From NCBI GenBank assembly GCA_965214905.1, contig OZ243984.1, forward strand, positions 2,518,003 through 2,582,002: 64,000 bases of DNA. The letters are read 5' to 3'. The number at the start of each line of letters is the position of its first letter. Position 1 is the stretch's first letter. Both the position numbers and the translations under genes were made by a program. The notes beneath the pieces are model-generated. The model was not told the origin of the DNA. It saw only the letters and a list, made by a program, of their open reading frames with translations, and did not search any database. Below, one piece after another: positions 17,419-59,907 of the stretch. This stretch comes from an uncultured Candidatus Binatia bacterium (GTDB taxonomy: Bacteria > Desulfobacterota > Binatia > UBA9968 > JAJDTQ01).

Positions 17419-18513
17419 CTATGCCCTCCTCAACAGGTTGTATATCTGGCTTGACCCTCGGTTGCGAACCAGGGGTTTGCGCCGGCTGGAGATGTTCTCG
17501 TAGTTCAACCCCATAGTCAACGGCGCCGGCTGTAGATCCAGCAACTGGTTGACCCCTTCATCGAACACGGCTTCGGGAATGCGGAGTTCCTCGCAGACCG
17601 AGTCACGCACCTCGGGCAAGTCATAGTATCCGCCTCGAGGTGATAGCTTCTCGAAGATCTGGTCAATGACTTCCCAAAGCCTTTGTTGAGTCGCCTTGTC
17701 CGTCATATCCGGTTCACAAAAGTATATCGTGAAAGGGGAGGCGGAAGACGGTTCAATCGATAACTGCACATACCAGTCGTGCGGTGGAGAGTTGTCCACG
17801 CAGGGCGAATAGCTCTTCAAAAAATCGCACCCCTCGATGGTAGTAGAGTCTCTCGCGATGTTCAAAAGACGAAGGCTTACCAACCGATCAACGATAGACC
17901 TGAAAAGCGGTACCCTGATGCGGACACCCGGCAAGGCCCAATTTATCACCTTTTCTTGCAAGGCGTCCTCTATCTTCTTTGCCACTCCTCCCTGGAAACT
18001 TTCCCGGATGGTGTTTGCGATAGAGTCTGCCTTTTCGGCAAAGGTCGGTTCGAGCAGCCTTCGGAGGTACCCCTCCTGCTCAAGCTTGCCAGTTTCCACG
18101 GTGGGACGCCAAATACACCCTATCTCAAGGTGTTTCTGTACCACAGCTCGAAGGTTGTCGTAGGTCTCGATGTGAACGCTGGCCATAACACGCCGCAATT
18201 CCATGTGCTTACGGCTGTCCACCAGGTACATCACCTCTTTGCCTCGATCCGTAAGTTCGTATGCTCTTTTGGCCGAATTCGCGAACCCGAAATGAACCAA
18301 CTCACGGCAGACCTTTTCGCCAACGGTCTCGAAAGTTCCCCTCGGTTCAGGCAGTAGAAGCCGAAGAGCCTTGTTGCTGACGTATTTTCGAACGGAACGG
18401 GAGATAGTCTCCTCCTGTTCTTCTCTACGCGCGGTCAAGGGAAGACAGCCTAAGACCCTCAACCCGATGTAATGGTAACTTATATCGGAGATGTTGTAAC
18501 TAGATATGTTCAT
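17419..18513 (-). CDS. hypothetical protein (364 aa), possible winged-helix region
   Basis: No recognisable catalytic motif was found. The start overlaps the upstream gene stop (18510-18513) and the G+C is low. The stop TAG at 17419-17421 is immediately followed by GGAGGG-GTG of the next ORF. Confidence 0.45.
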   Translation of the reverse strand: MNISSYNISDISYHYIGLRVLGCLPLTARREEQEETISRSVRKYVSNKALRLLLPEPRGTFETVGEKVCRELVHFGFANSAKRAYELTDRGKEVMYLVDSRKHMELRRVMASVHIETYDNLRAVVQKHLEIGCIWRPTVETGKLEQEGYLRRLLEPTFAEKADSIANTIRESFQGGVAKKIEDALQEKVINWALPGVRIRVPLFRSIVDRLVSLRLLNIARDSTTIEGCDFLKSYSPCVDNSPPHDWYVQLSIEPSSASPFTIYFCEPDMTDKATQQRLWEVIDQIFEKLSPRGGYYDLPEVRDSVCEELRIPEAVFDEGVNQLLDLQPAPLTMGLNYENISSRRKPLVRNRGSSQIYNLLRRA

Positions 18514-19292
18514 CTTCGGCCGCTTGCCTCTCTAAACTTGGCCAGTAGATCCGTGCAGTCTCCGTTAAGCTGTCGCAGTTGTCGGCTCAAGGCCAAGGTC
18601 TGCAGGCCGCCGACGGCTTTCAGGACTATGGTATCTTCCGAGTGAAATCCACACCGGTTGGTTAGCCAAGTTTCGTTCAAGGCACGGGATAGACTGTTTA
18701 GTCCTACACAGAATTCCTCGAATTGATCCGTGGTTTCAGTAAGCAAGGGGATGCCTTTGTGAATTTCGGCGTTCATTCTCCAGGCGCTATCAATAAGAAC
18801 CGGCAGAGGCCGCACACCCGGCGCAATCGGATGGACGCCCAACCCTAAACAAGCGGCAAGCCCGCTTTCCTCAAAGGAAGTACTGGACATAAACGCAGGC
18901 AACACCTCTCGCATCAGTAGGGTAGGGTTAAAGGCCAGGTAATCCAGAATCTTGGCGAAGAAAATGACTATCTCATTTTTCTCCGTGGGATTTGCGGGGC
19001 GGTTTTTGATCTCCACAACGGCGACCAGATCCGAGGTTTGCGCCACGATGTCAACTTCGTGATGAACGCCAGACGCCGTGTCCAGCCCCTCCCCAAGCCA
19101 CATTTCTCGCTCTTGGGAGATTGTCCAATCCGAGAGGTTTTTCACACAGCTTTCCCGAAAGCGCATCTCGAACCCTTGGTCGCCCGTCGGTTCCCGGTTG
19201 ATATGTTGCCATTCCGAGTTGACGAACAAGTAACAGCGCTTCAAAAACTTAAGTGCCGTATCGGGAAGATAACTATCTTTCTGGATGTCCAC
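18510..19292 (-). CDS. hypothetical protein with PD-(D/E)xK nuclease-like motif (…HHEVDIVAQ…VAVVEIKN…)
   Basis: The product is 260 aa. A D…ExK motif sits on predicted beta-strands. It is the first gene of a three-gene low-G+C cassette at the trailer end of the CRISPR array. Confidence 0.45.
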   Translation of the reverse strand: MDIQKDSYLPDTALKFLKRCYLFVNSEWQHINREPTGDQGFEMRFRESCVKNLSDWTISQEREMWLGEGLDTASGVHHEVDIVAQTSDLVAVVEIKNRPANPTEKNEIVIFFAKILDYLAFNPTLLMREVLPAFMSSTSFEESGLAACLGLGVHPIAPGVRPLPVLIDSAWRMNAEIHKGIPLLTETTDQFEEFCVGLNSLSRALNETWLTNRCGFHSEDTIVLKAVGGLQTLALSRQLRQLNGDCTDLLAKFREASGRR

Positions 19293-19768
19293 TTGGAGAT
19301 CCCCTCATTTTTGGATCAGATGACACCGAAGATTTCACGGTACCGGGGTTGCTCCATCAGCATGTGGGCAAACTTCTCGACCAGTGGACGGAGTCGGTGC
19401 TCGGGCCAGTTCGGAATAGGCTCGTAGAGCATCGACCCTTGGCGAAATAGCGAGTGCGTGCGGCTCTTGACCGTGCTCGCCTTCAGCCACCGGTCATGGC
19501 CCAAGCTCTCGCCCGCTGCACCGAGCAACGTTAGCAAGGCAATCGACAGCGCGCTGAGAAGCAGCATGCGGTCGCGGCGCTGCGGCGCGCAAATCGCTCT
19601 GGAACCGGCTTGCGTCACCCGGAAGGGCCTACACCGACAGGACGCGAAATGTTCAGAATACAAATCGACGTTATATTCAGTAAGTTACGCATCTATTCTA
19701 AAGAAAATTATGAGGGGACCCCTAATATCGGGCTGCTGATCTGAAATTCTACAGCCAATATAACAGAA

Positions 19769-20232
19769 GTTCAATGTAGTCGATGGGTAGCGGGGGAGAG
19801 CGCTCGCACCCGGGCCTGAAGCCTCGCGACGGCCCCGTTTCAATCCGCTCCCCCCGCCGAAGCGGGGGGAGACACGGCGCCGCAGGCGGAAACGACGCCG
19901 GCAGAGACGTTTCAATCCGCTCCCCCCGCCGAAGCGGGGGGAGACACGGAGGCGGAGTGGGAGCGGCAGTTCGGGGCCGGGTTTCAATCCGCTCCCCCCG
20001 CCGAAGCGGGGGGAGACATCGAGGGTGACGTGTCGCTCTCGATGGAAGATCTGTTTCAATCCGCTCCCCCCGCCGAAGCGGGGGGAGACTGTTTTGGGTG
20101 GGTGCGGTTGGATGCCGGAAGTAGTTTCAATCCGCTCCCCCCGCCGAAGCGGGGGGAGACCGGTGATTACGGCGGTTACCGGGAAGCCGGGGTCGGTTTC
20201 AATCCGCTCCCCCCGCCGAAGCGGGGGGAGAC
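19769..20232 (-). CRISPR. CRISPR array, 37-bp repeat (minus-strand read: gtctccccccgcttcggcggggggagcggattgaaac), 7 repeats (trailer-most degenerate), 6 spacers of 34-35 bp
   Basis: Perfect repeats lie at 19837, 19909, 19981, 20053, 20124 and 20196. A degenerate repeat lies at 19769-19801. The repeat contains a 10-bp palindromic stem and ends …ATTGAAAC in the cas-gene orientation, as is typical for type I-C. An AT-rich leader sits on the cas2 side. Confidence 0.95.
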
Positions 20233-20413
20233 CCCACCCATTATAACTGGCAATATATCAAAAGGTTAGGTGTCCGGATGCGCGATCCGAGGAGATTGGG
20301 CGTCAGAGGACTCCTGTTCGATTGTCATGGAATGCAGTGATGCACTGTTATACAAGTCTTTACGAGTCGCGCGAAAGCAATGGCGAAACTCCCGCGCTGC
20401 ACGTTCGCGCAAG
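20233..20413 (-). promoter_or_regulatory. CRISPR leader (AT-rich) between cas2 and first repeat
   Basis: The sequence reads cccacccattataactggcaatatatcaaaaggttagg…. It is AT-rich relative to the locus and sits adjacent to the newest repeat. Confidence 0.6.
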
Positions 20414-20704
20414 CTACAAGATCAGCGGATCGTTCAAATTCACGGGCTCTTTTACCCCGTAGTGTTCCGTACTGTCCTTGACGTCTTCATCCAGATGATA
20501 GACTCTCAGGGAGTCCTGCTCGGGGTCGATCTCGTCCAGCAGGCGATTTTTGAGCGTAGCCCATTCGGTTCTTCCGACTTGACATTCAAAAACCGACTTT
20601 TGCACCCGGACCCCATAATCCTCGCACGCCCTTGCCACACGTCGGAGGCGTTTCTGCCCTACCTTGTCAGCGGTGGAGACGTCATAGGCGATCAGAATGA
20701 ACAT
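20414..20704 (-). CDS. cas2: CRISPR-associated endoribonuclease Cas2
   Basis: The product reads MFILIAYDVSTADKVGQKRLRRVARACEDYGVRVQKSVFECQV…, a classic Cas2 N-terminus. It begins 4 nt after the cas1 stop. Confidence 0.9.
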   Translation of the reverse strand: MFILIAYDVSTADKVGQKRLRRVARACEDYGVRVQKSVFECQVGRTEWATLKNRLLDEIDPEQDSLRVYHLDEDVKDSTEHYGVKEPVNLNDPLIL

Positions 20705-20708
20705 GGCG

Positions 20709-21788
20709 TTACTTGGGAATGAACGGGATATAATCGGGAATGTCGCCACGAAGCGTTCGGGCCAACAGCTTGGCCTGGATGCTGAACACCTGCCCGAGGC
20801 GGATGTTCCCCTTGAACAGAGCGTGCTTTATTTCCGTTTGCTTGCGACGCTGCCAGGTTTGGATAACTTCTTTTCTGCCTCGGTCGGTAAATTCCACTAC
20901 GCCTCCTTCTCGCTCTCGAAAGTGCCTGGGCTCGATTTGACGCCGGTTGATCAGGGTCAACGCCAATCGCTCCGCCAGACAGGGCCGGAACTCTTCCATC
21001 AGATCGAGGGCGCAGGCGGGCCTGCCCGCCCGCGTCGTATGGAGCCAGCCGACGTATGGGTCCAGTCCGGCGGTTGTCAATGCGGCCAGGCAATCGTGGC
21101 GGACCAGTGCATAGATGAAAGACAGCAGGCAGTTGATCCTGTCTCGTGGCGGCCGCCGGGTGCGGGTGAAGAATCGGAAGTCATTCCGTTGTTGCTTGAG
21201 CATGTGTTCGAACACGGAGAAATATACTTTGGCTCCGATGCCCTCCAGTCCCCGGATCGGGTCCAGCGTCGCCCGAAGGCTGGCACTTTGGTCGACCGGT
21301 GGGGCGTTTCCAGGCATGGACTTGGCCGCAAGTTGACGAATCAGTCGGGCAAGCTCGACCGCGGCGCCAGCCAATGCCACATGGTCCGATTCCTCATCCG
21401 CTTCCCGGGCGGACCGTAAGAGGTTGGAGCGCGAGTTTTGCAGCTTCCCGGCGACGATTTGCCGCGCGATGCGGGCCGCCTCCACGGGACTGTCAGCCGC
21501 CGCGTACTGAGCACGGCGCAGCAAGTAGCGCGTGTCGCCACTTCCCATCACCTGAGCCAGCAGGTAGCCGTTCTCCGTGTGGTAGTGGATCGCAACCTGA
21601 TGCTCCCAGCACAGGGCCATGGCGGGGGGCGTCACGACGACCTGTCCGAAGGCGCAGACGCTTTCCAGATGGTGGATCGGCAGGGTCAGGCGGGTTTGCT
21701 TTTCGACCTCGACCCGGAGCGTCAGATGATCCCGATGCACCACGGTTCCCGGCGTGGTCAGGTAGAGAGTGTTTTGAACGACGGCCAT
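20709..21788 (-). CDS. cas1: CRISPR-associated endonuclease Cas1 (type I-C-like)
   Basis: The 359-aa product begins MAVVQNTLYLTTPGTVVHRDHLTLRVE… and contains conserved Cas1 acidic and His residues. Confidence 0.9.
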   Translation of the reverse strand: MAVVQNTLYLTTPGTVVHRDHLTLRVEVEKQTRLTLPIHHLESVCAFGQVVVTPPAMALCWEHQVAIHYHTENGYLLAQVMGSGDTRYLLRRAQYAAADSPVEAARIARQIVAGKLQNSRSNLLRSAREADEESDHVALAGAAVELARLIRQLAAKSMPGNAPPVDQSASLRATLDPIRGLEGIGAKVYFSVFEHMLKQQRNDFRFFTRTRRPPRDRINCLLSFIYALVRHDCLAALTTAGLDPYVGWLHTTRAGRPACALDLMEEFRPCLAERLALTLINRRQIEPRHFREREGGVVEFTDRGRKEVIQTWQRRKQTEIKHALFKGNIRLGQVFSIQAKLLARTLRGDIPDYIPFIPK

Positions 21789-21829
21789 GGGGTGTCACGG
21801 GTCCGTGCAGGCCGTAAAGCCGCTGATCG

Positions 21830-22480
21830 CTACTCCCCGGTTTCGAACACTCCCCGAGAGAGCCGCGCCAGCATGGGTGGAGCGCTGGTGATCTCTGGAA
21901 GGCAGTGGTCGAAAAGTGAACATTCCGAACATTGGGGCTTGTGGATCGCTTTAGGGACCGTTTCCTGTTCGATGAGCCGGTGCACGGCTTCAATGGCCTG
22001 CTCGGTGAGGCACCGCAGTTCTTGGGTAAATTCCACCTCTCGGCGGCGCTTGCTCTTGGCGTGGAAGATGGCGCCTCTCGAAACCTCGATCCCGAACATT
22101 TCTTCCAGGCACAGAGCCTGGGCGCAAAGCTGGGCGTCGTCGTTGTCGAACTTGCGGCGTTTGCCTTTCTTGAACTCAACCGGGGTCAGCGAGCCATCGG
22201 AACGACGTTCGACAATGTCGCACTTGCCGCTGAGCCCGAGTCGGTCCGACCACACGGGCAAGGCACGCAACAGGGTCACACCCCTGACGGTTTCATAGCC
22301 GGAAGTATCGGTCTGTTCGTGAACGCTATCGCCGATAACCGTGTGCTCGTTGGCATCTCGCCATCCTTCGACTGCCTTCAACGCTGCCCTGCGATGGCAG
22401 TAGAGGAAATCGTTGATGAGCGAGAGGGGAAACATCTCCCGCTCGACAGTGTCTGAAGAGCCGTCGGGGCAACGCTGCAT
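21830..22480 (-). CDS. cas4: CRISPR-associated exonuclease Cas4 (RecB-like nuclease with C-terminal Cys cluster)
   Basis: The product reads …FLYCHRRAALKAVEGW… and carries a C-terminal CSECSLFDHC Fe-S Cys motif. An alternative start exists at 22435. Confidence 0.85.
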   Translation of the reverse strand: MQRCPDGSSDTVEREMFPLSLINDFLYCHRRAALKAVEGWRDANEHTVIGDSVHEQTDTSGYETVRGVTLLRALPVWSDRLGLSGKCDIVERRSDGSLTPVEFKKGKRRKFDNDDAQLCAQALCLEEMFGIEVSRGAIFHAKSKRRREVEFTQELRCLTEQAIEAVHRLIEQETVPKAIHKPQCSECSLFDHCLPEITSAPPMLARLSRGVFETGE

Positions 22481-22481
22481 T

Positions 22482-22886
22482 CTATTTTGCGGTTTTACCG
22501 GCGTCGAACCGCATTCTTCTGCCGGCCTTTAACAGAACAGCCGGCAATCGCTTCAGTTCCTCACTGCGTGGGTCCACCTCGAACCCACCGGATTCCAGGG
22601 CGGTAACGCCAAGTAACGGCTCCACCCCCTCATCGCCGTACACGACGGTCCCGCCAACGACTTCTCCTTGAAACTCGATCTCGGCGATGGTGATGTCCAA
22701 GGCGACGGACTTGCCATCCGCAAGCACGTACTCTCGGCGGCCTCTCGGTTCAAGCCCGATTGCTTCGAGGCAGGCTCTCGGTACAAGCGAGTCGAACGCA
22801 CCGGTACCAACTAGAAACTTGCTGGTCCAGCTCCGGCTCGGGTTCGCGGGATTGCGGATCGTGACATCAACGTAAGTCGCGCCCAT
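22482..22886 (-). CDS. hypothetical small protein, retropepsin-like (clan AA aspartyl-protease-like) fold candidate, translationally coupled to cas4
   Basis: The product is 134 aa: FLVGTGAFDSLVPRACLEAIGL…ADGKSV…LLGVTALESGGFEVDP. This resembles retropepsin-like domains, but with GTGA in place of DTGA. Its stop (22482-22484) lies 1 nt from the cas4 ATG (22478-22480). Confidence 0.45.
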   Translation of the reverse strand: MGATYVDVTIRNPANPSRSWTSKFLVGTGAFDSLVPRACLEAIGLEPRGRREYVLADGKSVALDITIAEIEFQGEVVGGTVVYGDEGVEPLLGVTALESGGFEVDPRSEELKRLPAVLLKAGRRMRFDAGKTAK

Positions 22887-23042
22887 TCTGGTTCCCTTCG
22901 GGTTGGTTACGGCTTCACCGAACCCCGTTGCGGTTGCAATCGCATTCTACGCCGACCTGAAATGACCGGAGAAAGGGTTGCTGAAACAGAACGAGGCAGC
23001 ATCGGGATCAGCGATACTTGGCCTTGAAATTCCAGATCAGCG

Positions 23043-25391
23043 TTACAGAATGATCCCTCCGTCACGCTGCGACTCCAGCAAGGGGAGCAGGCCCTTCCAG
23101 TAACCAAGAAACTCGTCGTAGCAGTTTGGTTGAATGCCTACCAACTCACTGTCACGACTCAGTGGTCGGGTGACGGGCAGATCGTTCTGTCTGGTTTTCC
23201 AGACCTGCACGCTATGACGCATGATTTCTGCGGGCGACGGAAACTCCTTGGGATCCCTCGCTTGAAATCGCTCTATCAAGTCCTGACTGACAAGCACCGT
23301 GAGTGTATCCTCGGCGATGATCCGGCAGCGGTTGGCAACTTCGGGATAGTCCCCATCTTCTTCGGCTTCAATGATATGCTGAGCCCCGATCTCGGTCCCG
23401 CCAAAACCCGAAATGACTTCTCGACGCAAGGCTTCGGTGCAGTGTTGCGGACTAAGAAGTTCGCCGTGTTCGATAAACATCTTGTCAAGCACCTTTCGCG
23501 AACTTTTGAACCCGGGGTGCAGGTTCAGAAAACCGGATTCGTCGTGTGCGAAATCCCATACCTCCGCTTGAGTGTATTCGCCGTTTCGATTGACCCGTCC
23601 GGCGACCTGGAGAAGGCTGGTCAGGCTGCAGCGTTCACGAAAGGCGGTACGAAAGGAAAAGTCCACCCCGGCTTCTATGCAACTCGTGGCTACCAGGATC
23701 CAGTCCCTGTCGCCTCTATTGCCGAGACGCTGCCTGATTCGGGAAACAATTGCCGATCGATGCGCAGGACAGATTGCCGTAGAGAGATGCTCTACTCGTG
23801 AGTCTGTCTCGCCCGTCCATTCACGACCTGGATAGAATCGACTCCACAGAAATTTGGCCAGGACAGCGGCAGATTGCACCGTGTTCAGAATTATCAACCG
23901 AGGCCCTGGTTTGTCCTTCTCAAGAACAAAGTCCGCCAACTTTTCGAGGGTCAACCGATCGTCGTGCCTCTTGAGAGATACCCGGTGGCCTTCGGAAGCG
24001 TCGGCCTGATCCTTCGATTCCCCAACGACGAGTGGAGGTACGGAGGGCCGTCGCTCAACCGGAACGAAGTCCTCCAGTTCCCAAAAACGTGGCAGCGAAC
24101 CACTGGCGAGGACGACGTGGCAGTTCCAGTCCTCGCATAGTTCTTGCAGCCAACGCCAGTGCTGAGGCCACAGCGGCGCCGGCACGGCTGCGTGTGCTTC
24201 GTCTACGAAGACTGCTGAACCCGGTACTTGATGGAGCTTGCGGAGCGCAGCGGTCCGATTCGCGGCGAGCGTCTCGAAAAACTGCACCGCCGTGGTCACG
24301 ACGATTGGCGCTTCCCAACGCTGCGCCAACTGCCGCAACTCTCTCCATTGTTCACCGCTGAACTCGACTCTGTGATGGTGAGCGGCAACCACCGATTCAG
24401 GGTCTTCACCGGGCAACACCAATGCCTTGCGATAAACGTCAACAGATTGATCGATGATGTTGGTGAACGGCAGGACCACGAACACCCGGCGCAAGCCGCG
24501 TTTATCAGCGACCCGCAGGAGATGTGCCATTACGGCAGAGGTCTTGCCGGTTCCGACCGGACTTTCACAGGCGACCATCCGTTCGCCGTTCTCAAGTTCC
24601 CGGTCGCGACAGGCTCGGTAGACGCTCTGTCGCAACCGAAGCCGTGTCGTCTCCGCTGGGGACGTGCTGGATTGGTTGCGTCCGAGGTTTTCTACGTAGC
24701 GGTCCAAGGCTTGTAAACGTTCGGCAGCTCTCAGTAGGGCGCCGTCCAACTCCCGCTCTTCCCGATAATGTTGCGCGGTGTCGCTATGATCTCCGTCCAC
24801 AAGACAGGATAGGGCTAGGCGACGGACCAAGCCGGTAAAGCAAGGTCGGGGATCGCCGGCGGGAGGGGGTTTGACGGGTTTGACGACATCGGCATGTTGA
24901 TGGAGATAGCCGTCAAGCAGTTTGTCCGTTCTCTCCCAGGACACTGCGTCCATGCCGTTCAGCTCTTTTCCGTCACGCAAGAAGAGGGATCGTTCTGTTC
25001 CTTCGTCATCAAATTTTGCTTTTGCTCTCTCCTTAGGCAGTGACGGCAAGCCAATGTGATGGCTGAAGCAGCATATCGCCGCTTCACCCAGCTTCCGCTT
25101 CAGCAGGTGAGCGGTGCCTGCCTCGACATGATTGAAACCTTCCTCATTGGGGCGGTTGCGGTACAGAATGTCCTGGAAGATTTCGTCCAACTTGCCGAGA
25201 TCGTGATAAGTGGCGGCCAATTCCACCACCGCCTGAAAAAATTCCCGCTCTGAATATGTCACCGCCGCTTCGCGAGCAAACTTGGCTGCAAGGCGGCGTA
25301 CGTTGGCTACATGTTCACGGTAGCTCTGCCCCGGTGAGCCTCGTCGGGCACTATGGGCCAGAGCGGAATGGTTGGAGGACGACATGCTCAT
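23043..25391 (-). CDS. cas3: CRISPR-associated helicase/nuclease Cas3 (HD domain + SF2 helicase)
   Basis: The 782-aa product has an N-terminal HD motif (…TYHDLGKLDE…) and a VFVDEAH DExH box. Its start overlaps the cas7 stop (TAATG). Confidence 0.9.
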   Translation of the reverse strand: MSMSSSNHSALAHSARRGSPGQSYREHVANVRRLAAKFAREAAVTYSEREFFQAVVELAATYHDLGKLDEIFQDILYRNRPNEEGFNHVEAGTAHLLKRKLGEAAICCFSHHIGLPSLPKERAKAKFDDEGTERSLFLRDGKELNGMDAVSWERTDKLLDGYLHQHADVVKPVKPPPAGDPRPCFTGLVRRLALSCLVDGDHSDTAQHYREERELDGALLRAAERLQALDRYVENLGRNQSSTSPAETTRLRLRQSVYRACRDRELENGERMVACESPVGTGKTSAVMAHLLRVADKRGLRRVFVVLPFTNIIDQSVDVYRKALVLPGEDPESVVAAHHHRVEFSGEQWRELRQLAQRWEAPIVVTTAVQFFETLAANRTAALRKLHQVPGSAVFVDEAHAAVPAPLWPQHWRWLQELCEDWNCHVVLASGSLPRFWELEDFVPVERRPSVPPLVVGESKDQADASEGHRVSLKRHDDRLTLEKLADFVLEKDKPGPRLIILNTVQSAAVLAKFLWSRFYPGREWTGETDSRVEHLSTAICPAHRSAIVSRIRQRLGNRGDRDWILVATSCIEAGVDFSFRTAFRERCSLTSLLQVAGRVNRNGEYTQAEVWDFAHDESGFLNLHPGFKSSRKVLDKMFIEHGELLSPQHCTEALRREVISGFGGTEIGAQHIIEAEEDGDYPEVANRCRIIAEDTLTVLVSQDLIERFQARDPKEFPSPAEIMRHSVQVWKTRQNDLPVTRPLSRDSELVGIQPNCYDEFLGYWKGLLPLLESQRDGGIIL

Positions 25392-26320
25392 TAGCCATCG
25401 AGCGCATAGTCTTGGTACTTGCCGCAGTTCGAGAATGTTCTACTGGACCCGAATCGGACAGGGTTGTCCTTGATTGCGTCCCATGTCGGAATTTCGTAGT
25501 CGTCCAGCGATTCGGAGGGCTTGTCCATCGCCGTCTTCTTGCGAGGCGTCAGGGCATCCAACAGGGCGAAATCGGACAACGAACCGCGTCGCTCATTGTG
25601 GGTGAAGACGTGAGCGTGAATGATCTCAACCATTGTTCGGACAACGGAGCGGGTGTGCGGATAAGCCAGAGGCAAAAGCTCAAGCATCAGCTTAACGTCG
25701 GTCTCCGTGCATCCCGTCTTGTGGGCCAAACCGGGATTGACAAAGAAAGGAACCGTATAAACTCCATGTTTGACGACGCGAAACGCCATGGGCGCCATGC
25801 CGCGGTCCTTGCCTGTTTCAACGCCTGATTTGCTCGTCCATGTTGAATACTCGATGTCTATCGGAGCCACGGAAACGCCGACACCAAAGTGTGCCACCCC
25901 GGTACGGATTGTGTCTCCACTGCCTTCTTCGAGGAAGGTGTTCCCAAACAGGCGTCCGTCCCAATAGGCTTCCTTGAACCCTTGAGAAAGTCGATGGTTA
26001 CCTTCCTTTTCCATGAGCTTGCGAATTTCTTCGCGGTTTCGCCCTCGCTGCTCGAGAATCTTAAATTCGTCGTCCGCCTGAATCTCCAACTTTTCTTTGA
26101 CTTCCTGCCACACCACGCCCTCCTTTTCCAGAACAAGATCGCGGAGCTTCCGTTTGAAAGACACCGGCGAGATCTCGCCCTTACCGTCCGGGCGCTGGCG
26201 AGGGGAGCCTTCGCGCTCGGGGTCGCCGTTGGGGTTGGATTTCCGTACCTCGATCACAAGCAGGCCAGTGATGCGAGGGACTTGCGTTTCGGTCCTGGTA
26301 CCGTGTTCCTGTGTGGACAT
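25391..26320 (-). CDS. cas7: Cas7 (Csd2/Cas7c family, type I-C)
   Basis: The product reads MSTQEHGTRTETQVPRITGLLVIEVRKSNPNGDPEREGSPRQ…PVSFKRKLRDLV, matching the Csd2 N-terminal signature NPNGDP…. Confidence 0.8.
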   Translation of the reverse strand: MSTQEHGTRTETQVPRITGLLVIEVRKSNPNGDPEREGSPRQRPDGKGEISPVSFKRKLRDLVLEKEGVVWQEVKEKLEIQADDEFKILEQRGRNREEIRKLMEKEGNHRLSQGFKEAYWDGRLFGNTFLEEGSGDTIRTGVAHFGVGVSVAPIDIEYSTWTSKSGVETGKDRGMAPMAFRVVKHGVYTVPFFVNPGLAHKTGCTETDVKLMLELLPLAYPHTRSVVRTMVEIIHAHVFTHNERRGSLSDFALLDALTPRKKTAMDKPSESLDDYEIPTWDAIKDNPVRFGSSRTFSNCGKYQDYALDG

Positions 26321-26324
26321 AGGG

Positions 26325-28514
26325 TTAGGCTTCCGTTTCGGTTTTCGGATGATCGGCGAGGTAGCCGAGAAGGAGTTGAGCCTTGTGAACGTCTTCCATG
26401 CGATCCGGCAGTTCGGCAACGTCGATGTGGCGTTCACGCTCGCCCATCTGACGAACAAACCAGTGAATCAATCCTGCGTCCTTACCCGAGTAGGTGTCTG
26501 CCCAGCCTTTGTACGGCCGGACGCGCTCGGCGAGGCGAGCAAGCGCCGACAGCGGATTGTCGAGGGCAAGGTTGAACAGTGAGTTTCCAAGCAACTCGGA
26601 TGGCGCTTCGACGTCGCCATTTTTTCGCTTCTGATCCGGGGTACGAACCCACTTGCAGTACTGCAGATGCAGGCCGTCGGCCAAGGCTAGCAGTCGCCCT
26701 ATCTGATAGGTCGAGTCTTGCATAAACTGATCCTTTGAATGTCCGAGTTGTTGAAGGAGAATGCCGATAAGCGAGATCGTCTTCCTGCACTGCCAACGAA
26801 CGTTGTCGCTCAGGTCTTTCCAACGACAACTGGTCTTGACACTTCCAAGGCCGACAAGAACCGGAGATGTCCGATGCAAAAGGAGCGAGAAACACAGGCA
26901 TGTCTTGTTCCGTGATATCGGCCCATCGGAAAAGAACAGGTCGTAGGCATCCGATGTGGTGACAGCACGTTGAAAGGATGAGGCGAAGCCGTTTTTGGCA
27001 TCTGATCTCCAGACACGATTAATGACTGACGTCAGGTCGAGCGGATGAGGCACAAAATGAGACTTCCAGTCGGCCTTCATTTCTTTCTTGTTAGGAAACC
27101 AGATGGAAACAGGCGGTGTGTTGGCGGCTCCAGTCTTCCATTCCTGAGCCGCGCGAATGATGTCCTGCACACGGAACTGGCGATGCAGGCTGACTTGCTT
27201 GCGTCCCTTGTCGATTTCACATAGAGTCAGAAGTCGAGCCGTCAAGTTCGGTTGTTCCTGTAATTTGCCCTCAAGGGCGTTAAGCACGGACCGTGTTCGT
27301 TCGGCAAAATCCGCATCTCCAAATCTTTGTGCCTCGCCACCGAATAGTTCGGCCAACTGTTCCTGGAAGTCTGGCGCTTGCTCCAGGTAGGCGATCAGCA
27401 GGTCGTTCCGGTTTCTGCCTGGAATTCCTCGCCATGTCAAACCTTCCTCTCTCTTCTCGTCGCCGAGGTAAAGCAGTGCGTTGTTCATTCTCTGTACGAC
27501 CGGTGTAGATGCCGGAAACTGCATGGATCCCTTCAGTCCGTAGCGACGAAGTGCCTTGATCTCGTCCGTGTTTACAGAGAAAAGCTTCACGTCACCGAGG
27601 TTTGCGACTTTGGGGGTCGGGTATTTGTCTTGCAAGAGACCTTGGTTTCCAAATGCGTCCAATTCACCCTGGTCGGATTGAGGTTTGACTGTATCGTGTC
27701 TGAGCATGAACTCGTTTATTGCCTTGCTGGTGTCCGGGTGAGCGACGGCTTTATGATTGAGATCGATCTTGGCCACATCGAAATATACGGGTTGGTTGGT
27801 GTTCTTAGCGTTCTTATCTTGCTTGGTCTTTTCCGACCAGTAGGCGTCCGAGCCCAGCTTGGCCATGCGCTTTCTCCAGTCGAGCACACCGAACAAGCCT
27901 TGTTGTATCAGGCAGAGATCCTCGCGATCAGCGGTTGCTGACGTGTGGAGAAAGGTGTCGGTCAGATTCCGGCTGAACCGATTCAGATCGAGTTCGGTGC
28001 GCCCCGCTACGTCCAGCAGTCGTGTAAAGTTGCTCAGTCCCGGTGTTGCCGTGCCAAGCATTTTTTGAAGCTCGTGAACCAACTTGACGACCGAGCGCCT
28101 GAACTGGCTGCACTGGGAGCTCGTGAACGGACGCGGCTGGGATAACTCGACCATCTTCGCAAGGGCATTGCAAATCTGCCTGGTCGGTGGGTTCTTTTCC
28201 TTCCACAAACCACAAAGCCGTTCCAAAACGGGGGTTAATCGGGTAGATGTGGATGTCGAATCAAGATGGCGAAGCGGTGTTGGGATGTTGAGTCCGGGAA
28301 AGCTGGAGCCCGATGAGCCGTGCTCCACGCGAAATAGACGGGCCGCCTTGTCACCTGGAACGAACTCCACTTCGGCTGGTCCGGCATCGTCGTTCAGTCG
28401 CACGATCAACAATTTCCTGGTTTTTGCCATCGGCTTGATACGCGGGTGTCGCGATGGCGGAACGATGCCCACTCGATCCATAGCCTGCGAGACGAGATAG
28501 AGCTCGTTAAGCAT
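26325..28514 (-). CDS. cas8c: Cas8c (Csd1-like large subunit)
   Basis: The product is 729 aa. It sits between cas5 and cas7 with the overlapping and coupled junctions typical of Cascade operons. Confidence 0.7.
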   Translation of the reverse strand: MLNELYLVSQAMDRVGIVPPSRHPRIKPMAKTRKLLIVRLNDDAGPAEVEFVPGDKAARLFRVEHGSSGSSFPGLNIPTPLRHLDSTSTSTRLTPVLERLCGLWKEKNPPTRQICNALAKMVELSQPRPFTSSQCSQFRRSVVKLVHELQKMLGTATPGLSNFTRLLDVAGRTELDLNRFSRNLTDTFLHTSATADREDLCLIQQGLFGVLDWRKRMAKLGSDAYWSEKTKQDKNAKNTNQPVYFDVAKIDLNHKAVAHPDTSKAINEFMLRHDTVKPQSDQGELDAFGNQGLLQDKYPTPKVANLGDVKLFSVNTDEIKALRRYGLKGSMQFPASTPVVQRMNNALLYLGDEKREEGLTWRGIPGRNRNDLLIAYLEQAPDFQEQLAELFGGEAQRFGDADFAERTRSVLNALEGKLQEQPNLTARLLTLCEIDKGRKQVSLHRQFRVQDIIRAAQEWKTGAANTPPVSIWFPNKKEMKADWKSHFVPHPLDLTSVINRVWRSDAKNGFASSFQRAVTTSDAYDLFFSDGPISRNKTCLCFSLLLHRTSPVLVGLGSVKTSCRWKDLSDNVRWQCRKTISLIGILLQQLGHSKDQFMQDSTYQIGRLLALADGLHLQYCKWVRTPDQKRKNGDVEAPSELLGNSLFNLALDNPLSALARLAERVRPYKGWADTYSGKDAGLIHWFVRQMGERERHIDVAELPDRMEDVHKAQLLLGYLADHPKTETEA

Positions 28515-32913: not shown

Positions 32914-33380
32914 GTCGGTTCCTCCCCGTTGGTGTGCGTGGGCCTTCGGTTATGCAGCGTCCCGCGACACAGGGTCCCGCGACGGGACTTTCTCTGTGTA
33001 GCAGATCGGACGATGGCTCGCGAGACGGTCCCCGGTCATCGCCAGGACCATTTCACGCTGGCTGAGCATCCGCTCTGGATGGGCCGAAGCACTCTCATCC
33101 GTGCCGTCACGGCAGGCTGTGGACTCCGTGGGAGCCGCGGGTCGGCCGGATCTCGTCCGGGTCTCGCCATCCGAGCGATTGAATCCGATTTGGAACCGTA
33201 GCGTGAAATGATCCCGGTCATCGCGGCCCTCTCCTGCGTCCCGGCGCCCTCCGCCCCGACGTTCTCTCCGTCTCCCGGGTATCCCATCGAGTCCGACGTG
33301 TCCCCGTCACTACGATTCGACGTTCCCTCCGTCTCCCGGGCATCCTCTCCGTCATCCCGGACCCGGTCCGGGATCCGATG

Positions 33381-33523
33381 GGGTGTCCTGAATCAACCGT
33401 GCGGGTCCTTCAGGCCGTCGGCTGCGTGGCTCCGCCTCGCGTGGGACCGGCCGCGGCTCGTGGTCGCGCCTTGCCGACGACAAAGGTCCCGCGCATCCGG
33501 TCCACGGTTGATTCAGGACACCC
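33381..33523. mobile_element. MITE-like element copy 1 (143 bp) with 21-bp terminal inverted repeats gggtgtcctgaatcaaccgtg
   Basis: The terminal inverted repeats lie at 33381-33401 and 33503-33523. The internal roughly 70-nt GC-rich core is shared with the elements at 59471-59622 (inverted) and 58724-58880. Confidence 0.75.
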
Positions 33524-33574
33524 GCCAGGAAGGCCCGGAAGGGGTTATGAGGCGTGCTCGAACCGCCGGTGTCC

Positions 33575-34327
33575 TCACACCGGCTCCGGCATCTCGGCCA
33601 GAAGCCGTCCATAGCCGGGAATCGGCTGCCGCACGCCCAGACGCATCTGCGTCTCCCAGCAACGCGCCGGCAGTGCGTGCACCACCGGCACCCCCAGGTC
33701 CATCTCCAGCGGCTCGATGATGTCCAGCGTCTTCCAGGCGGACCCCAGCATGTAGAGGCATTCGCCCCCGGGATGCCGGGCGAACATCGCCGCGAGTTGC
33801 CGCCGGATCCCGGAGGACGGGACCTTCGGGACGTCGGCGAACGGCACGTCGATGCCCTCCATGCCCAGCACCTCGAAGCCGGCACCGGTCAGGTAGGCGC
33901 GGAAGAGAGCGTTCAACTCTTCCGGAAAGTAGCTCGCGCCCACGATCCGCCGTACCCCCAGGGTGCGGAACGCGCGCACGTGGTTCTGCCCCGAGGTTAC
34001 CATGGGGATGCCGTACCGGCTCTCCCAGGAGTCGAGGGTGGCGCGCTCGCCCTCGTAGCCCAGCAGCATGAAAGGCGGGGCGCCGATGGTGCGGATCAGG
34101 TCCGGCTTCAGCGCCGCCAGTTCGGCCACCTTGGCCTCGTAGCCCGGTATGGAGGCCCGGAACTCGGTCTGGGTTCCCCGGGTGAACTCCATGCTCAGAT
34201 GCACGAACCGGATGCTCGGCGGCAGCTTCGGGTCCAGTTCCTTGTCACCGAGCACTCCGGTCCGGTTCGTGGGCCACACCGAGCCCACCAGATACTCCGT
34301 TCTGGAACGTCGTTTTTCGTTCACCAT
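33575..34327 (-). CDS. Asp/Glu/hydantoin racemase family protein (arylmalonate decarboxylase/maleate isomerase-like)
   Basis: The product is about 250 aa. Family signature regions …IGAPPFMLLGYEGERA… and …VVHALPARCWE… are present. Confidence 0.55.
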   Translation of the reverse strand: MVNEKRRSRTEYLVGSVWPTNRTGVLGDKELDPKLPPSIRFVHLSMEFTRGTQTEFRASIPGYEAKVAELAALKPDLIRTIGAPPFMLLGYEGERATLDSWESRYGIPMVTSGQNHVRAFRTLGVRRIVGASYFPEELNALFRAYLTGAGFEVLGMEGIDVPFADVPKVPSSGIRRQLAAMFARHPGGECLYMLGSAWKTLDIIEPLEMDLGVPVVHALPARCWETQMRLGVRQPIPGYGRLLAEMPEPV

Positions 34328-34458
34328 GAGGCCCTCTGTAGAGGTAGGATTCCCCAAGGGTATCGGCCAAATTTACATGGCATAATTACATGTTACAAGA
34401 ATCGACCCCTTCCAGCCGGAGCCGCCAGCGGGTCTGCTTGCAGGGCCGGCCCCGGAGA

Positions 34459-36114: not shown

Positions 36115-37155
36115 ATGGAGAAATGGGTCACCAACCTGCTGAGCAGGCTGTTTCGACGGAGGCGACGGGCGGCAGTCACGGATCACGAACGGAATCGCGA
36201 ACTTGCCGGCAAGGCGCTGGATCGCCTCCGCGAGGGTCTCGCGCCCTTTGTTGCGCGTGAGCTGAAAGGTAAAAACGTAGACGACGGCTCCCCTTCGGCC
36301 GACAGGCGCTCCTCGTGGGCCGACAGGCCCGTGGCCGAGCGAGATACAGCGGGCCTGCTCAAGCTGATATGGGACAAGTGGCAATGGGTGTTTCGGAACA
36401 TCCTGGGACAGACGGAGCGCAGTTTGGTGTCGGAACTGCGCGACTGGCGCAACCGATGGGCGCATCAGGAAACTTTATCCAGCGACGATGCCTACCGGAT
36501 TCTGGACTCCGCGAGTCGCCTGCTGGCCGCGGTGTCGGCACCGCAGTCGGAAGACCTCGATAAGCTCAAGCAGGAGCTGTTACGTACCCGTTTCGACGAA
36601 CAGACCCGTGGGGAACGCCGCCAGCAGGTGCGGAATTCCACCAGCAGAGTGGGCGCCGCCATCAGGAGCCGGGTTCGACCCCTGGATGAATTCCGCATGT
36701 TCGTACCGCCCTGCGGTCGATCCTTCGACCACAACATGGAATATCGCCTCTACCACTGTCCGTCTACCTATAGCCATAAGCAGGATGCCGCGTTCCTCGG
36801 CATGTATATCGACAAATCGGTCCGGGGTATCGGGCGGATCGAACGTGGGTATGACCCGGTGAGCCGAACCGGCGCAGTGAAGGCAAGCCGCTGGAAAGCA
36901 GGTGCTTCGCCAGTGGCACGTTTCGCCGGCGGTATGGATGGAGTATATACCGTGAGATGTTCATCGAGCGTGTGGTCGCCTGCCTGCAGCGGGAAGGAGT
37001 GCGCTTCGCCATCGCCGGGGGTTACGCGGTGGCATTGCACGGAGCGGTGCGCGGCACGGTGGACGTCGATCTGGTGCTGGCCTTGTTCAGGAAGAACCTC
37101 GTTGCGGCGGAATCGGCGCTCAACCGCATGGGCCTGCGGTCGCGCCTGCCGCTGA
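36115..37155 (+). CDS. HEPN-domain protein (Swt1-like Rx4H motif: RNRWAH); 3' end uncertain (ORF overruns next gene start by about 200 nt)
   Basis: The N-terminal roughly 160 aa carry the Rx4HxxE-type HEPN signature (LRDWRNRWAHQE). The distal part of the ORF overlaps the following nucleotidyltransferase gene in another frame. Confidence 0.5.
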   Translation: MEKWVTNLLSRLFRRRRRAAVTDHERNRELAGKALDRLREGLAPFVARELKGKNVDDGSPSADRRSSWADRPVAERDTAGLLKLIWDKWQWVFRNILGQTERSLVSELRDWRNRWAHQETLSSDDAYRILDSASRLLAAVSAPQSEDLDKLKQELLRTRFDEQTRGERRQQVRNSTSRVGAAIRSRVRPLDEFRMFVPPCGRSFDHNMEYRLYHCPSTYSHKQDAAFLGMYIDKSVRGIGRIERGYDPVSRTGAVKASRWKAGASPVARFAGGMDGVYTVRCSSSVWSPACSGKECASPSPGVTRWHCTERCAARWTSIWCWPCSGRTSLRRNRRSTAWACGRACR

Positions 37156-37421
37156 AGGCGGAAGAGGTTTTCGACTTCCGGGAAGAATACATCCGCAACC
37201 GGAACCTCATCGCCTGGAGCTTCGTCAACCCGGCAGATCCCACGGAGCTCGTGGACATCGTACTCACCGAGGACTTGGTGGCCATGCAGGTGGACATGAT
37301 TTCGGCAGGAAGGCTGCGGCTGCCGGTGGTAGCAGTGCCCGACCTGATCCGCATGAAGGAAAAAAGCGCCCGGGCACAGGATATCGAGGACATCCAGGCA
37401 TTGAGGCGGATCGGCTCATGA
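36957..37421 (+). CDS. nucleotidyltransferase-fold protein (MNT-like partner of HEPN)
   Basis: The product reads …GVRFAIAGGYAVALHGAVRGTVDVDLVL…, a minimal nucleotidyltransferase G[GS]…D.D motif. Confidence 0.6.
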   Translation: MFIERVVACLQREGVRFAIAGGYAVALHGAVRGTVDVDLVLALFRKNLVAAESALNRMGLRSRLPLKAEEVFDFREEYIRNRNLIAWSFVNPADPTELVDIVLTEDLVAMQVDMISAGRLRLPVVAVPDLIRMKEKSARAQDIEDIQALRRIGS

Positions 37422-37714
37422 GACCTGTACAGTTCTTTTCGGACGAGTATCTCGATCAGTGCAGGCGGATGAAGCCGGCCGACGTCCTGCGGTTTCTCGA
37501 CGAGTTTCGCAGGCTTTACGCGCCCGCGCAGCGAATTGCCTTCAACGTCACCGGCCACCCGGCCCTCTCCCGGCTTTACGCGCCCGCGCGGCGAACGGAC
37601 GGCCGTCTCGTCAGCCTCGAGGTTCCCGAGGACCTGCCGGAGGCATTCAAGGCCGGGGCCCGCTTGCACGACGTGCGCTATCAGACCCGGATCAGACCCG
37701 GATCGAACGGTTGA
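37418..37714 (+). CDS. hypothetical protein (98 aa), start overlaps upstream stop (ATGA)
   Basis: It is translationally coupled to the nucleotidyltransferase gene. It contains an internal 26-nt direct repeat, gctttacgcgcccgcgcRgcgaa. Confidence 0.4.
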   Translation: MRPVQFFSDEYLDQCRRMKPADVLRFLDEFRRLYAPAQRIAFNVTGHPALSRLYAPARRTDGRLVSLEVPEDLPEAFKAGARLHDVRYQTRIRPGSNG

Positions 37715-38739: not shown

Positions 38740-38797
38740 GCGCCCCTCACCCGGCCTTCGGCCACCCTCTCCCACAGGGAGAGGGGGTTGCTCGCGT
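38740..38797. repeat. dispersed REP-like palindromic element, copy E
   Basis: The sequence reads cgcgcccctcacccggccttcggccaccctctcccacagggagagggggttgc. Confidence 0.75.
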
Positions 38798-48727: not shown

Positions 48728-48777
48728 TGGCGTCTCCCCGAATGCGAGATCCTCGTTGATGGTAATCGCGATATGCT

Positions 48778-49173
48778 TCACTTTTTATCTGCTGCTCCGT
48801 CGTTGTCCGTTCTCAGGCGCTCATATGTCGTCCGGATCATCTCCTCAAGGGCAACCGCTCCTTCGGAATTCAGGCGGGGATCGCGATGGATGATGGAGGA
48901 GATTTGAGCAAGGGGGCTAGCTGCCCCGAACTGTTCACTAGTGTCCGCGCGCATGAAGTGGTCTGCGGACATCCCGAGCCACGCGGTCAGGGCGGCCAAG
49001 CTGTTGACGTCGGGCCGGCGGCCTTGAGACAGGCGCGTAAGCGTTGATGCACTGACGCCCGACTCCGCTGCTACATCCTTCCAGGTGAGGCGCCGAGAGC
49101 GGCGCTCGGAGTCCATCGCGGCATGCAGCGCGCCGACATCGAACCGATCTACTCGATTTTCCGGTGGTTTCAC
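48778..49173 (-). CDS. XRE-family helix-turn-helix transcriptional regulator
   Basis: The product reads …LTWKDVAAESGVSASTLTRLSQGRRPDVNSLAALTAWLG…, a Cro/C1-type HTH. It is divergent from the Ubl operon. Confidence 0.75.
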   Translation of the reverse strand: MKPPENRVDRFDVGALHAAMDSERRSRRLTWKDVAAESGVSASTLTRLSQGRRPDVNSLAALTAWLGMSADHFMRADTSEQFGAASPLAQISSIIHRDPRLNSEGAVALEEMIRTTYERLRTDNDGAADKK

Positions 49174-49204
49174 ACTTGAAATCCTCCGTCACTATCGCTA
49201 CATT

Positions 49205-49232
49205 GCATAATAGCAATCAGCAGCCAGATTTG
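49205..49232. promoter_or_regulatory. near-palindromic operator-like site (ATTGC-N6-GCAAT) in divergent promoter region
   Basis: The sequence reads ctacattgcataatagcaatcagc, with a GGGG ribosome-binding site before the ATG at 49247. The region is AT-rich. Confidence 0.45.
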
Positions 49233-49246
49233 AAAGGGGTGACGAC

Positions 49247-49516
49247 ATGGCTACTACCGAGAACGCGAAGGACCGGATCCACGACGGGAAGATCGAGATT
49301 GCGGTCAACGAGAAGCCGGTGGTGCTTGACGGTCCGAAGCAGACGGGTGCAAGCATCAAGAAGGCGGCGACCGAGCAGGGCGTGAACATCAAGGAGGACT
49401 TCGTGCTGAGCATCGAGCTCGGCGGCGGGAAGACGCGTCTCGTCGGTGACGACGAGTTCATCGAGGTGAAGCCCGGTGAGCGATTCCTCGCGATCGAGAA
49501 CGACGACAACTCATGA
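49247..49516 (+). CDS. ubiquitin-like beta-grasp protein of the 'Multiubiquitin' type (single repeat)
   Basis: The 89-aa product reads KIEIAVNEKPVVLDGPKQTGASIKKAATEQGVNIKEDFVLSIELGGGKTRLVGDDEFIEVKPGERFLAIE. It is the first gene of an operon with E2-like and JAB-E1 genes. Confidence 0.6.
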   Translation: MATTENAKDRIHDGKIEIAVNEKPVVLDGPKQTGASIKKAATEQGVNIKEDFVLSIELGGGKTRLVGDDEFIEVKPGERFLAIENDDNS

Positions 49517-58723: not shown

Positions 58724-58880
58724 CCCGTGTCGTGTCACGGGAATATGTGGGCCAGGGTGCGGGTCTGTCGGCTGCATGGCTCCTCCTCGCGTGGTACGGG
58801 CCACTGCTCGTCGTCGCGCCTTGTCGACCCCGGAAATCCGGCAGGCTCCTGGCGCAGGTATTTCCGAGACACGACACGGC
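58724..58880. mobile_element. MITE-like element copy 3 (shares about 70-nt core with copies 1 and 2, different terminal inverted repeats: ccgtgtcgtgtcacgggaata / tatttccgagacacgacacgg)
   Basis: The core ggctcctcctcgcgtggtacgggccactgctcgtcgtcgcgccttgtcgac aligns with the copy-1 core. The terminal inverted repeats are about 21 bp. Confidence 0.6.
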
Positions 58881-58919: not shown

Positions 58920-59459
58920 GTGAAACGACAGGATACACGGTCGCCGGTCCGGGGTGAGGATTTTCGTAATGGGTGTCTTCGTGATGGGTCTCTTCTCGGG
59001 GGCGAGGAAGGGATCGTCCTCCCGTCGGTCCTCATGCTGATCGCGGTCCTGGCCGTGGTGAGCGCCACGAGCATGACCGCGACCCTGACCGAGTTGAGGA
59101 TCGCCGACGCCTACTACAAGAGCGTGGCCGTGTTCCACATCGCCGAAGCCGGACTTGCCCACGCCCGGCATGAAGTTTCGGACGAGGACGGCGACAGGGA
59201 TTTTGCCGCCATCCTGACGCCCACCACGCTCTTCAACGGCCGGGGGCTCCACCGCGGCAGCTATACCGTCGTCGCCGCCCCCGTCGTCGGCGTCACACCG
59301 GCCAGGCTCCGGCTGCGATCCTCCGCCTGCTACCCGGCCGGAGACCCCTGCCCGCGCGCCAATGCAAGGGCCGCCCTCGAAGCCCTGCTGGAGCATGACC
59401 CCGCCGGCGCCACCCCCCGGGACCGTGTCCGTCTGGTAGCCTGGAGGTCGCTGGACTGA
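58920..59459 (+). CDS. PilX N-terminal domain (type IV pilus minor pilin-like) protein
   Basis: A hydrophobic segment is followed by a TLTELRIADAYY-type PilX_N motif. The start is uncertain. The gene is flanked by two MITE-like copies. Confidence 0.5.
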   Translation: MKRQDTRSPVRGEDFRNGCLRDGSLLGGEEGIVLPSVLMLIAVLAVVSATSMTATLTELRIADAYYKSVAVFHIAEAGLAHARHEVSDEDGDRDFAAILTPTTLFNGRGLHRGSYTVVAAPVVGVTPARLRLRSSACYPAGDPCPRANARAALEALLEHDPAGATPRDRVRLVAWRSLD

Positions 59460-59470
59460 CGCCGCCGGTG

Positions 59471-59622
59471 GGGTGTCCTGAATCGACCGTGGCCAGGATG
59501 CGCGGGAATTCGGGTCGTCGGCAAGGCGCGACCACGAGCCGTGCCCGATACCCCGCGAGGCGGAGCCACGCCGCCGACGGCGAAAAGGACCCGCAGACGA
59601 TCCACGGTCGATTCAGGACACC
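59471..59622. mobile_element. MITE-like element copy 2 (152 bp; inverted relative to copy 1; same 21-bp terminal inverted repeats gggtgtcctgaatcgaccgtgg)
   Basis: The reverse complement aligns end-to-end with 33381-33523, with a 9-nt insertion. Confidence 0.8.
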
Positions 59623-59907
59623 TCGCCGGGTGCGGACCCTCTCATTGCCGCGGAGGTGCCGGTTCCGGGCGAGGATGCTCCGCGCAGCACTTGGCGCAGC
59701 AGCGCTGCATACATCCGGGAAGCCTGTCGCGCCACCCGAAAGCGGGGAGGCGATCCTTCTCATTGAACGATCCTTCTCATTGGACAACCAGGGTTCTATA
59801 TAGGAGATGAACCCGGTGGTATCCTGCGCCTTCGATTCGTGGGCGCAGCGCCAACGGAAGACACTACCGCAAACTACCGCACGACCGGGAGACGGAAGGA
59901 TGAATCC

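Follow-up and report, generated by a model that had tools for sequence, protein, structure and literature searches.

The intergenic segment at 33381-33523 of the window, the 64,000-nt stretch of DNA analysed here, belongs to a set of repeats in which inverted arms enclose a common core, and it raises the question of whether these repeats are mobile DNA or whether their core serves the host. A preliminary description had called them MITE-like and had taken the core, said to be conserved independently of the termini, for a small RNA or a protein- or ribosome-binding module. Our analysis identifies the repeats as members of a hitherto undescribed family of short mobile DNA elements that are non-coding, form hairpins and occur in several Binatia genomes.

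The copy at this position, c1 (33372..33532, plus strand), carries a window variant of the type A arm and scored 142 bits (E 4e-30) with a covariance model of the family. Its two 21-nt arms (33381-33401 and 33503-33523) are perfectly complementary and enclose a core at 33417-33478; 9 nt are missing from the left inner arm, and the element lies 51 nt past the stop codon of the maleate isomerase gene at 33575-34357(-). Copy c2 (59465..59629; 159 bits), also of arm type A, is inverted, with its core on the minus strand (59517-59578), arms at 59471-59491 and 59603-59623, and tips reading CCGG...CCGG. It is located 12 nt past the stop codon of a PilX_N-domain gene and differs from c1 by the 9-nt insertion TGGATCGTC. 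The c2 arms match GGGTGTCCTGAATCRACCGTG with 0 and 1 mismatch, and the sole difference between the arms of c1 and c2 is one mirrored A-T to G-C change. Copy c3 (58724..58880, plus strand; 127 bits) has a window variant of the type B arm, 32 nt long and 84% complementary (58725-58756 and 58848-58879), with its core at 58767-58828, and lies 48 nt past the stop codon of a short-chain dehydrogenase gene. The PilX_N-domain gene (58920..59459, plus strand; Pfam PF14341) lies between c3 and c2. Core identity was 87% over 62 nt between c1 and c3 and 89% over 82 nt between c1 and c2. Pattern searches of the window returned three matches to each of two core patterns and four to an arm pattern, whereas shuffled sequences would be expected to give 0.00-0.01. 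These data bear out the three copies, their intergenic positions, the near-identical 21-nt terminal inverted repeats of c1 and c2, and the inversion and 9-nt indel of c2. The termini of c3, however, are not unrelated to the others as had been thought: they form a second arm subtype of similar length that retains the GTGTC tip motif, and the same subtype occurs in another Binatia genome.

A truncated fourth copy, c4 (53273-53347, plus strand), has lost all but the right arm and the adjoining right part of its core (…GTCCCGCCTCGCCGAC…TTCAGGACATCACGCTGG) and marks the right-hand boundary of an island of 4.7 kb (48739-53444). Its right tip is abutted by a solo left tip, CTGGTGTGGTGTCCTTCG (53343-53360, plus strand), and the 4-nt sequence CTGG is common to both. 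Another tip-to-tip junction sharing a 4-mer was found at 7300-7330 of locus L013.

The earlier suggestion to look for further copies was fruitful, since they are present at unrelated loci in other Binatia genomes. Fourteen full copies of 143-195 bp were collected from the window and three other Binatia assemblies (OY282432.1, L013 and L022), with E values of 4e-18 to 1e-41 in a covariance model trained on ten copies. An exact-pattern scan of one genome per species revealed six copies in the Candidatus Binatia MAG OY282432.1 (4.09 Mb), which has no other 30-mers in common with the window; a seventh lies nearby in locus L008, giving a copy number of at least 7. The covariance model added four copies, two each in L013 and L022, among loci fetched through neighbouring proteins, and detected no full copy in twelve other related loci. 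The exact two-block core pattern gave only two matches in JGI metagenomes, both by chance in Pelomonas-like coding sequence, and this pattern is insensitive, matching 0 of 5 copies later found by other means; matches in Bauldia and Pelomonas genomes were likewise judged to be chance. Neither a scan of viral contigs nor a BLAST search of plasmids yielded a family member, and six-frame translations of the core, compared with 5.8 billion predicted proteins in search of spurious ORFs over other copies, had no match. A literature search on Binatia repeat content returned no paper describing it. The copies have no conserved ORF: all frames are open owing to the G+C content, and start and stop codons differ between copies.

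Folding showed that c1, c2 and c3 each form one long hairpin; z scores ranged from -3.7 to -6.8 for the RNA of either strand and from -3.6 to -6.7 for DNA. The arm is typically about 36 nt long and is bounded by C-Y-R-G, in most cases CTAG, at the terminus and by CTGC on the inner side; across copies, the arms measured 21-38 nt and were 84-100% complementary. We resolved at least four arm subtypes (A, A', B and C) of essentially equal arm length, of which the window copies represent variants of A and B. Mean pairwise identity was 0.23 in the flanks, which are unrelated sequence, and 0.72 in the outer 12 nt or so of the tip (TAGTGTnnTGTC; C-TAG-TGTnnTGTC); it was 0.42-0.52 in the mid-arm, which is free to vary while its pairing is kept, and 0.69-0.78 in the inner region, where AATCTGCnGGTCC is followed by a CUUUUCG/CGAAAAG helix. 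The highest values were those of the P2 helix (GUCGGC/GCCGAC; 0.93-0.98) and the apical core of about 50 nt (0.88), and the conserved core amounts to about 100 nt overall. The core is thus better conserved than most of the arms, as the preliminary description had held; it is not conserved independently of the termini, since the outer 12 nt or so and the arm length are common to all subtypes.

The arms showed compensatory changes at 21 of 33 pairs, with 91% of cells paired, a degree of compensation that none of 500 shuffles matched; in slid controls, 36-45% of cells were paired. The CUUUUCG/CGAAAAG helix also covaries, being replaced by GG/CC in A' copies, and a conserved, non-complementary GUCC/GUCC internal loop was present. 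In contrast, the helices predicted within the apical core were essentially devoid of covariation, with a two-sided change at only one pair and many broken cells (up to 5 of 14 per pair in core helices 4 and 5). A neutrally decaying TIR element would lose the complementarity of its arms. The arms of different subtypes differ at half of their positions and yet remain about 90% paired, which argues that something keeps them pairing: this may be either selection on the hairpin or arm-to-arm correction by template switching.

Orthologous loci, gathered through homologues of PilX and maleate isomerase, showed that the copies occupy intergenic insertion sites that are not orthologous and that their presence varies between close relatives. 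Relative to L012, which has about 90% nucleotide identity to the window, c3 is a clean 151-nt insertion (58726-58876) with a 1-nt junction overlap, and c2 is a clean 164-nt insertion (59461-59624) that replaces 4 nt of the L012 spacer. The same spacers are empty in L011-L016, representing six related genomes, and empty sites for c2 or c3 were found at 6-9 related loci in all. In L017-L019, which are 95-97% identical to the window and have the same PilX-to-Amt arrangement, c2 is absent and a 161-nt deletion has left only the right arm of c3. The spacer that holds c1 is 629 nt long in the window vs 53-118 nt in relatives; at this site, L020 has a family member with a strongly diverged arm, and L021 and L023 retain only a scar of about 20 nt, in which the inner-arm motif is joined to the right tip. 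Solo tips occur elsewhere, including L004 and L011, and the copy in L003 is chimeric, its two arms coming from different subtypes. The A' subfamily carries a foreign REP-like hairpin nested in the apical core at three loci in two assemblies. This hairpin, GGGGCGACCGC(C/A)GGTCGCCCCTAC, stands alone at L014 9733-9770 and is nested at L013 3895-3925, L013 7400-7430 and L022 1485-1520. The empty sites establish c2 and c3 as insertions, and together with the further copies in other Binatia they uphold the earlier label "MITE-like".

In the window (c3 - pilX - c2) and in L008, inverted copies flank a single gene in a superficially cassette-like manner, as might be expected of an integron attC-type recombination site. 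However, the PilX orthologues in L011-L016 have the same NamZ-SDR-PilX synteny and no elements, so that the PilX_N gene, an ancestral neighbour that is unflanked in relatives, is not cargo of the elements, and a composite transposon c3 - pilX - c2 is ruled out. Moreover, neighbouring copies are inverted rather than arrayed, their ends read CYRGTGT and not RYYYAAC/GTTRRRY, and the window encodes no integrase. These observations, together with the presence of copies at unrelated loci in at least four genomes, refute both the attC explanation and a chance local duplication, to which we attach next to no probability. Beyond c2, at 59625-59767, synteny with relatives is broken: c2 is followed by some 60 nt of homology to the pilO 3' end and then by an ammonium transporter gene in the place of the pilO-pilN-pilM-priA genes of relatives, and CGATCCTTCTCATTG is duplicated at 59751 and 59768. 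That c2 caused this pilONM-to-amt break is unsupported, as the same break occurs in L017, which lacks c2.

The ends of most copies are a 4-nt palindrome (CTAG or CCGG), and most of the copies outside the window match C-TA-GTGT…ACAC-TA-G or are one mismatch away. The ends of Tc1 and Tc3 start with CAGTG, and in a genome of 65% G+C, TAG stop codons are natural CTAG sites. These points favour a classical double-stranded TIR MITE, which a DDE transposase of the IS630/Tc1-mariner type would insert at the TA within CTAG, duplicating this TA. IS630 itself targets TA, preferably within 5'-CTAG-3', and duplicates it (PMC2170065 and the Tenzen references cited there). MITEs of the IS630/Tc1-mariner group, such as RUP, also resemble the Binatia element in the CTAG/TA context of most ends, in being bounded by terminal inverted repeats and in size. 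However, the recent insertions in the window lack TA, with c2 flanked by CCGG and c3 by CCG/CGG, and the empty c3 site of L012 reads CCGG. The palindromic nature of the flanking 4-mers makes a duplication of 2 or 4 nt indistinguishable from an extension of the inverted repeat, and the c3 junction is compatible with a duplication of 0-2 nt when compared with the empty site of L012. The flanks of the L007 copy, CCAG/CTGG, form an inverted rather than a direct repeat and so favour the inverted-repeat reading of the 4-mers. In addition, at least four arm subtypes on one core would need several transposases of differing specificity, binding of double-stranded DNA leaves the mirrored changes at 21 of 33 arm positions unexplained, and no cognate IS was found in about 0.4 Mb. 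An IS630/Tc1-type origin is therefore possible, although on the unlikely side.

In many cases, the gene upstream of a copy terminates at a TAG that overlaps, and is now provided by, the terminal CTAG of the element. This applies to the neighbouring gene of the copies in L002, L004, L008b and L022c, whose stop codon is the terminal TAG, and to the genes next to solo tips in L004 and L011; the use of the tip as a stop codon explains why solo tips remain when the remainder of the element has been deleted.

The stronger conservation of the core than of the stem, the covariation of the stem and of the CUUUUCG/CGAAAAG helix, the very stable fold (z about -6) and two U-A to U·G changes in a small apical hairpin are also what a multi-copy structured RNA would show, that is, a small RNA or cis-regulatory module with a functional core and a long stem that merely closes the fold. 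Against this, Rfam gave no match at the gathering score over the whole window, a permissive scan of the c1 region had a best E of 2 or worse, and neither a sigma-70-like promoter nor an intrinsic terminator was found around c1, c2 and c3. A sigma-54 promoter within the core (TGGCTCC…TCGC) was rejected by eye because the GG-to-GC spacing falls one base short and some copies have lost the GG. Among the 14 copies, 8 have the same orientation as the flanking genes and 6 the opposite one. The arm mismatches on the core strand comprise 22 G·U vs 28 A·C, favouring neither strand, and both strands fold equally well. Some copies fill their spacers with only 0-20 nt left to the neighbouring genes, leaving no room for signals of their own, and presence or absence differs between near-identical strains. 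Furthermore, copies with the foreign hairpin nested in the core still reached three loci, and the core helices, essentially without covariation, contain the broken pairs described above. The small-RNA gene reading of the elements is therefore not supported, nor is the view that the core serves the host as a binding module for ribosomes or proteins, and we regard a structured host RNA as very unlikely; judged from the alignment, conservation of the core could nevertheless stem from a host function instead.

The elements may also be hairpins that the host exploits after stop codons for processing or stabilizing mRNA, as targets of RNase III or RNase E like those of Correia and ERIC, possibly while being mobile as well. 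About 10 of the 14 copies lie within about 120 nt downstream of a stop codon in operon-like gene strings, and a near-perfect duplex of 25-33 bp is an RNase III-type substrate in either orientation; precedents are found in PMC2649163 and PMC10969869. Correia elements (CREE/NEMIS) of Neisseria are MITEs of about 100-200 bp with inverted repeats of about 26 bp, a conserved core and subtypes, and they are intergenic, co-transcribed with their neighbours, processed as hairpin substrates of RNase III and variable between strains (PMC2649163, PMC10969869). By description, the Binatia element is similar in its size, its intergenic location, its inverted repeats enclosing a conserved core, its several subtypes and its strain-to-strain presence or absence. 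However, Correia elements carry sigma-70 promoters and an IHF site, whereas no promoter-like site occurs around c1, c2 and c3; they duplicate TA, whereas the window copies are flanked by CCGG with an ambiguous duplication; and their hosts belong to another phylum. ERIC/YPAL elements, by their description, resemble it as well, being imperfect palindromes of 127-170 bp that lie in 3' untranslated regions and intra-operon spacers in either orientation, are highly conserved and tolerate internal insertions, but they occur in enterobacteria, an unrelated taxon, and ERIC is conserved over its whole sequence rather than as a core with covarying arms. By analogy with Correia and ERIC (PMC2649163, PMC10969869), the Binatia hairpin may be processed when co-transcribed. 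As an explanation of the family itself, host use of this kind seems quite unlikely: a CTAG/TAG target preference combined with purifying selection against intragenic insertion explains the placement equally well, and close relatives have lost or truncated copies without visible consequence.

We therefore consider the family to be non-coding, non-autonomous mobile elements of 143-195 bp in Binatia, best called foldback MITEs (MITE/REPIN-like), with a probability of roughly 0.72. MITEs are defined as elements of 50-800 bp without a transposase gene, with terminal inverted repeats of at least 10-15 bp and a target-site duplication of 2-10 bp (PMC11602168). Measured by this definition, the Binatia copies have a fitting size (143-195 bp) and no conserved ORF, arms of 21-38 nt that are 84-100% complementary, and a dispersed and polymorphic distribution, with 14 full copies in four assemblies and the c2 and c3 sites empty in 6-9 related loci. 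REPINs are hairpin-forming REP doublets mobilized by RAYT tyrosine transposases, and compensatory changes in their hairpins are common (PMC3116915). The Binatia element resembles them in being short, non-coding, intergenic and multi-copy, in forming one long hairpin over the whole unit with compensatory changes on both sides, in leaving solo halves that read as decayed remnants, and in having no clear target duplication. It differs in that REP ends are conserved and the spacer least so, whereas the central 100 nt or so are the best conserved part of the Binatia element (0.88-0.98 vs 0.72 at the tips); the family thus departs from the REPIN pattern of ends more conserved than the spacer. REPINs are also shorter, at about 70-110 nt compared with 143-195 nt, and no RAYT gene was found near the Binatia copies.

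No transposase with matching ends was found in the approximately 0.4 Mb examined, and the proteins of the window include neither a Y1 transposase nor a RAYT. The only transposase trace in the window is a 115-aa ORF (19316-19663, minus strand) that corresponds to the C-terminal part of an IS4-family transposase; it was rejected as the mobilizer because it is just a truncated C-terminal piece. An IS1595 element in L021 was also rejected, its inverted repeats being unrelated.

As foldback MITEs, the elements would be moved in trans by a putative transposase that reads the tip plus the core or inner junction, while the arms would need only to pair. Recognition of this kind points to a single-stranded hairpin intermediate, such as has been proposed for REPIN/RAYT and IS200/IS605. 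The tip, the core and the similar arm length common to the subtypes suggest a replicating unit that is recognized as a hairpin, with core and hairpin probably needed in cis for mobility. The core would then be kept because only copies with an intact core leave descendants, and not through use by the host; cutting of the co-transcribed hairpin, or stabilization of mRNA by it, may be a side effect. A more specific model, which we offer tentatively as rather unlikely, is that the element is read by its structure: an enzyme of the HUH/Y1 type, or a new one, might bind the core and inner junction of the single-stranded hairpin, use the arm of about 36 nt as a ruler and cut the tip beside the C-NN-G palindrome. 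Under this model, the core would be a cis-acting "handle", and the arm sequence would drift freely as long as it pairs; in a variant of it, the core may be an RNA-level module freed from operon transcripts by cleavage of the arms.

Binatia (phylum Binatota) are uncultured. The elements mark recent insertions, deletions and island boundaries and can therefore be used as strain markers; they are also a likely source of assembly breaks, the L020 contig ending within one, and they rewrite gene ends through the TAG stop codons that they supply. Their pattern of conservation, in which the core is best conserved and the arms covary, is unusual, and the family, in which tips and core are conserved while arms of similar length covary freely across four or more subtypes, provides a testable handle on how hairpin-shaped mobile DNA is recognized. 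Because the arms yield strong but misleading covariation, such elements should be masked ahead of RNA-motif discovery.

Several other repeats were observed in the window. A second, different MITE-like repeat at 33031-33224 has inverted repeats of 18 nt at 33042-33059 and 33200-33217 and the perfect 12-nt direct repeat CCCGGTCATCGC on either side. Its right end is a 95% match to nt 1-65 of L017, beside a remnant of the main family. A 20-kb rearrangement, considered because L017 nt 1-65 correspond to window positions 33154-33218, was rejected, as the stretch is the end of this repeat; L017 nt 1-65 are probably another copy of it or an assembly join. Immediately to the left of c1 are the direct repeat CGACGTTCYCTCCGTCTCCCGGG, spaced by 61 nt (33254-33345), and a perfect 10-bp hairpin (33354-33374), both of which belong to the roughly 575 nt of additional spacer sequence that relatives lack. 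A third repeat family, composed of CCCTCTCCC(A/T)(G/C)AGGGAGAGGG hairpins and a GGCCGAAGGCCGGGTGAGGG module, is found at 5686-5728, 13301-13343, 13378-13420 and 38744-38787 in the window and forms long tandem or nested arrays in L013 (7060-7230 and 10460-11080), where the tips of one version of about 245 nt read CYAGTG, as in the main family. Upstream of a TctC-family gene, at 534-621, the 25-nt unit ATGGAATACGCGGTCTTGGGCCGTG is perfectly repeated in tandem at least three and a half times. At 62599-63744, three tandem 309-nt repeats (87-92% identical) and partial units lie inside a large ORF; the number or arrangement of units differs in L017, in which the region is a called TPR-repeat protein gene.

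The 4.7-kb island at 48739-53444, of which c4 forms the right edge, is absent from relatives, whose acetyl-CoA synthetase-like and FAD_binding_2 (PF00890) flavoprotein genes are only about 200-300 nt apart at this site. Its gene products are a protein with a Multiubiquitin domain, a ThiF/E1-like one and one of 528 aa without a family match, and the island may be a defence-type ubiquitin-like system. A CRISPR array at 19836-20249 contains at least six 37-nt repeats (GTTTCAATCCGCTCCCCCCGCCGAAGCGGGGGGAGAC) and is accompanied at 20414-28514 by cas2, cas1, cas4, cas3, cas7 and a weak Cas8c match; the locus looks like type I-C and lies within a stretch of lower G+C content (54-60%) at about 16-29 kb. 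The IS4 remnant (19316-19663, minus strand) is located beside the array, and four more ORFs at 16056-19292 have no family match. An ORF with a Swt1-like HEPN domain (36115-37155) adjoins two small ORFs without a match (36957-37714), raising the possibility that this locus may be a toxin-antitoxin or defence module; near the corresponding locus, relatives have BrnT/BrnA-like genes.
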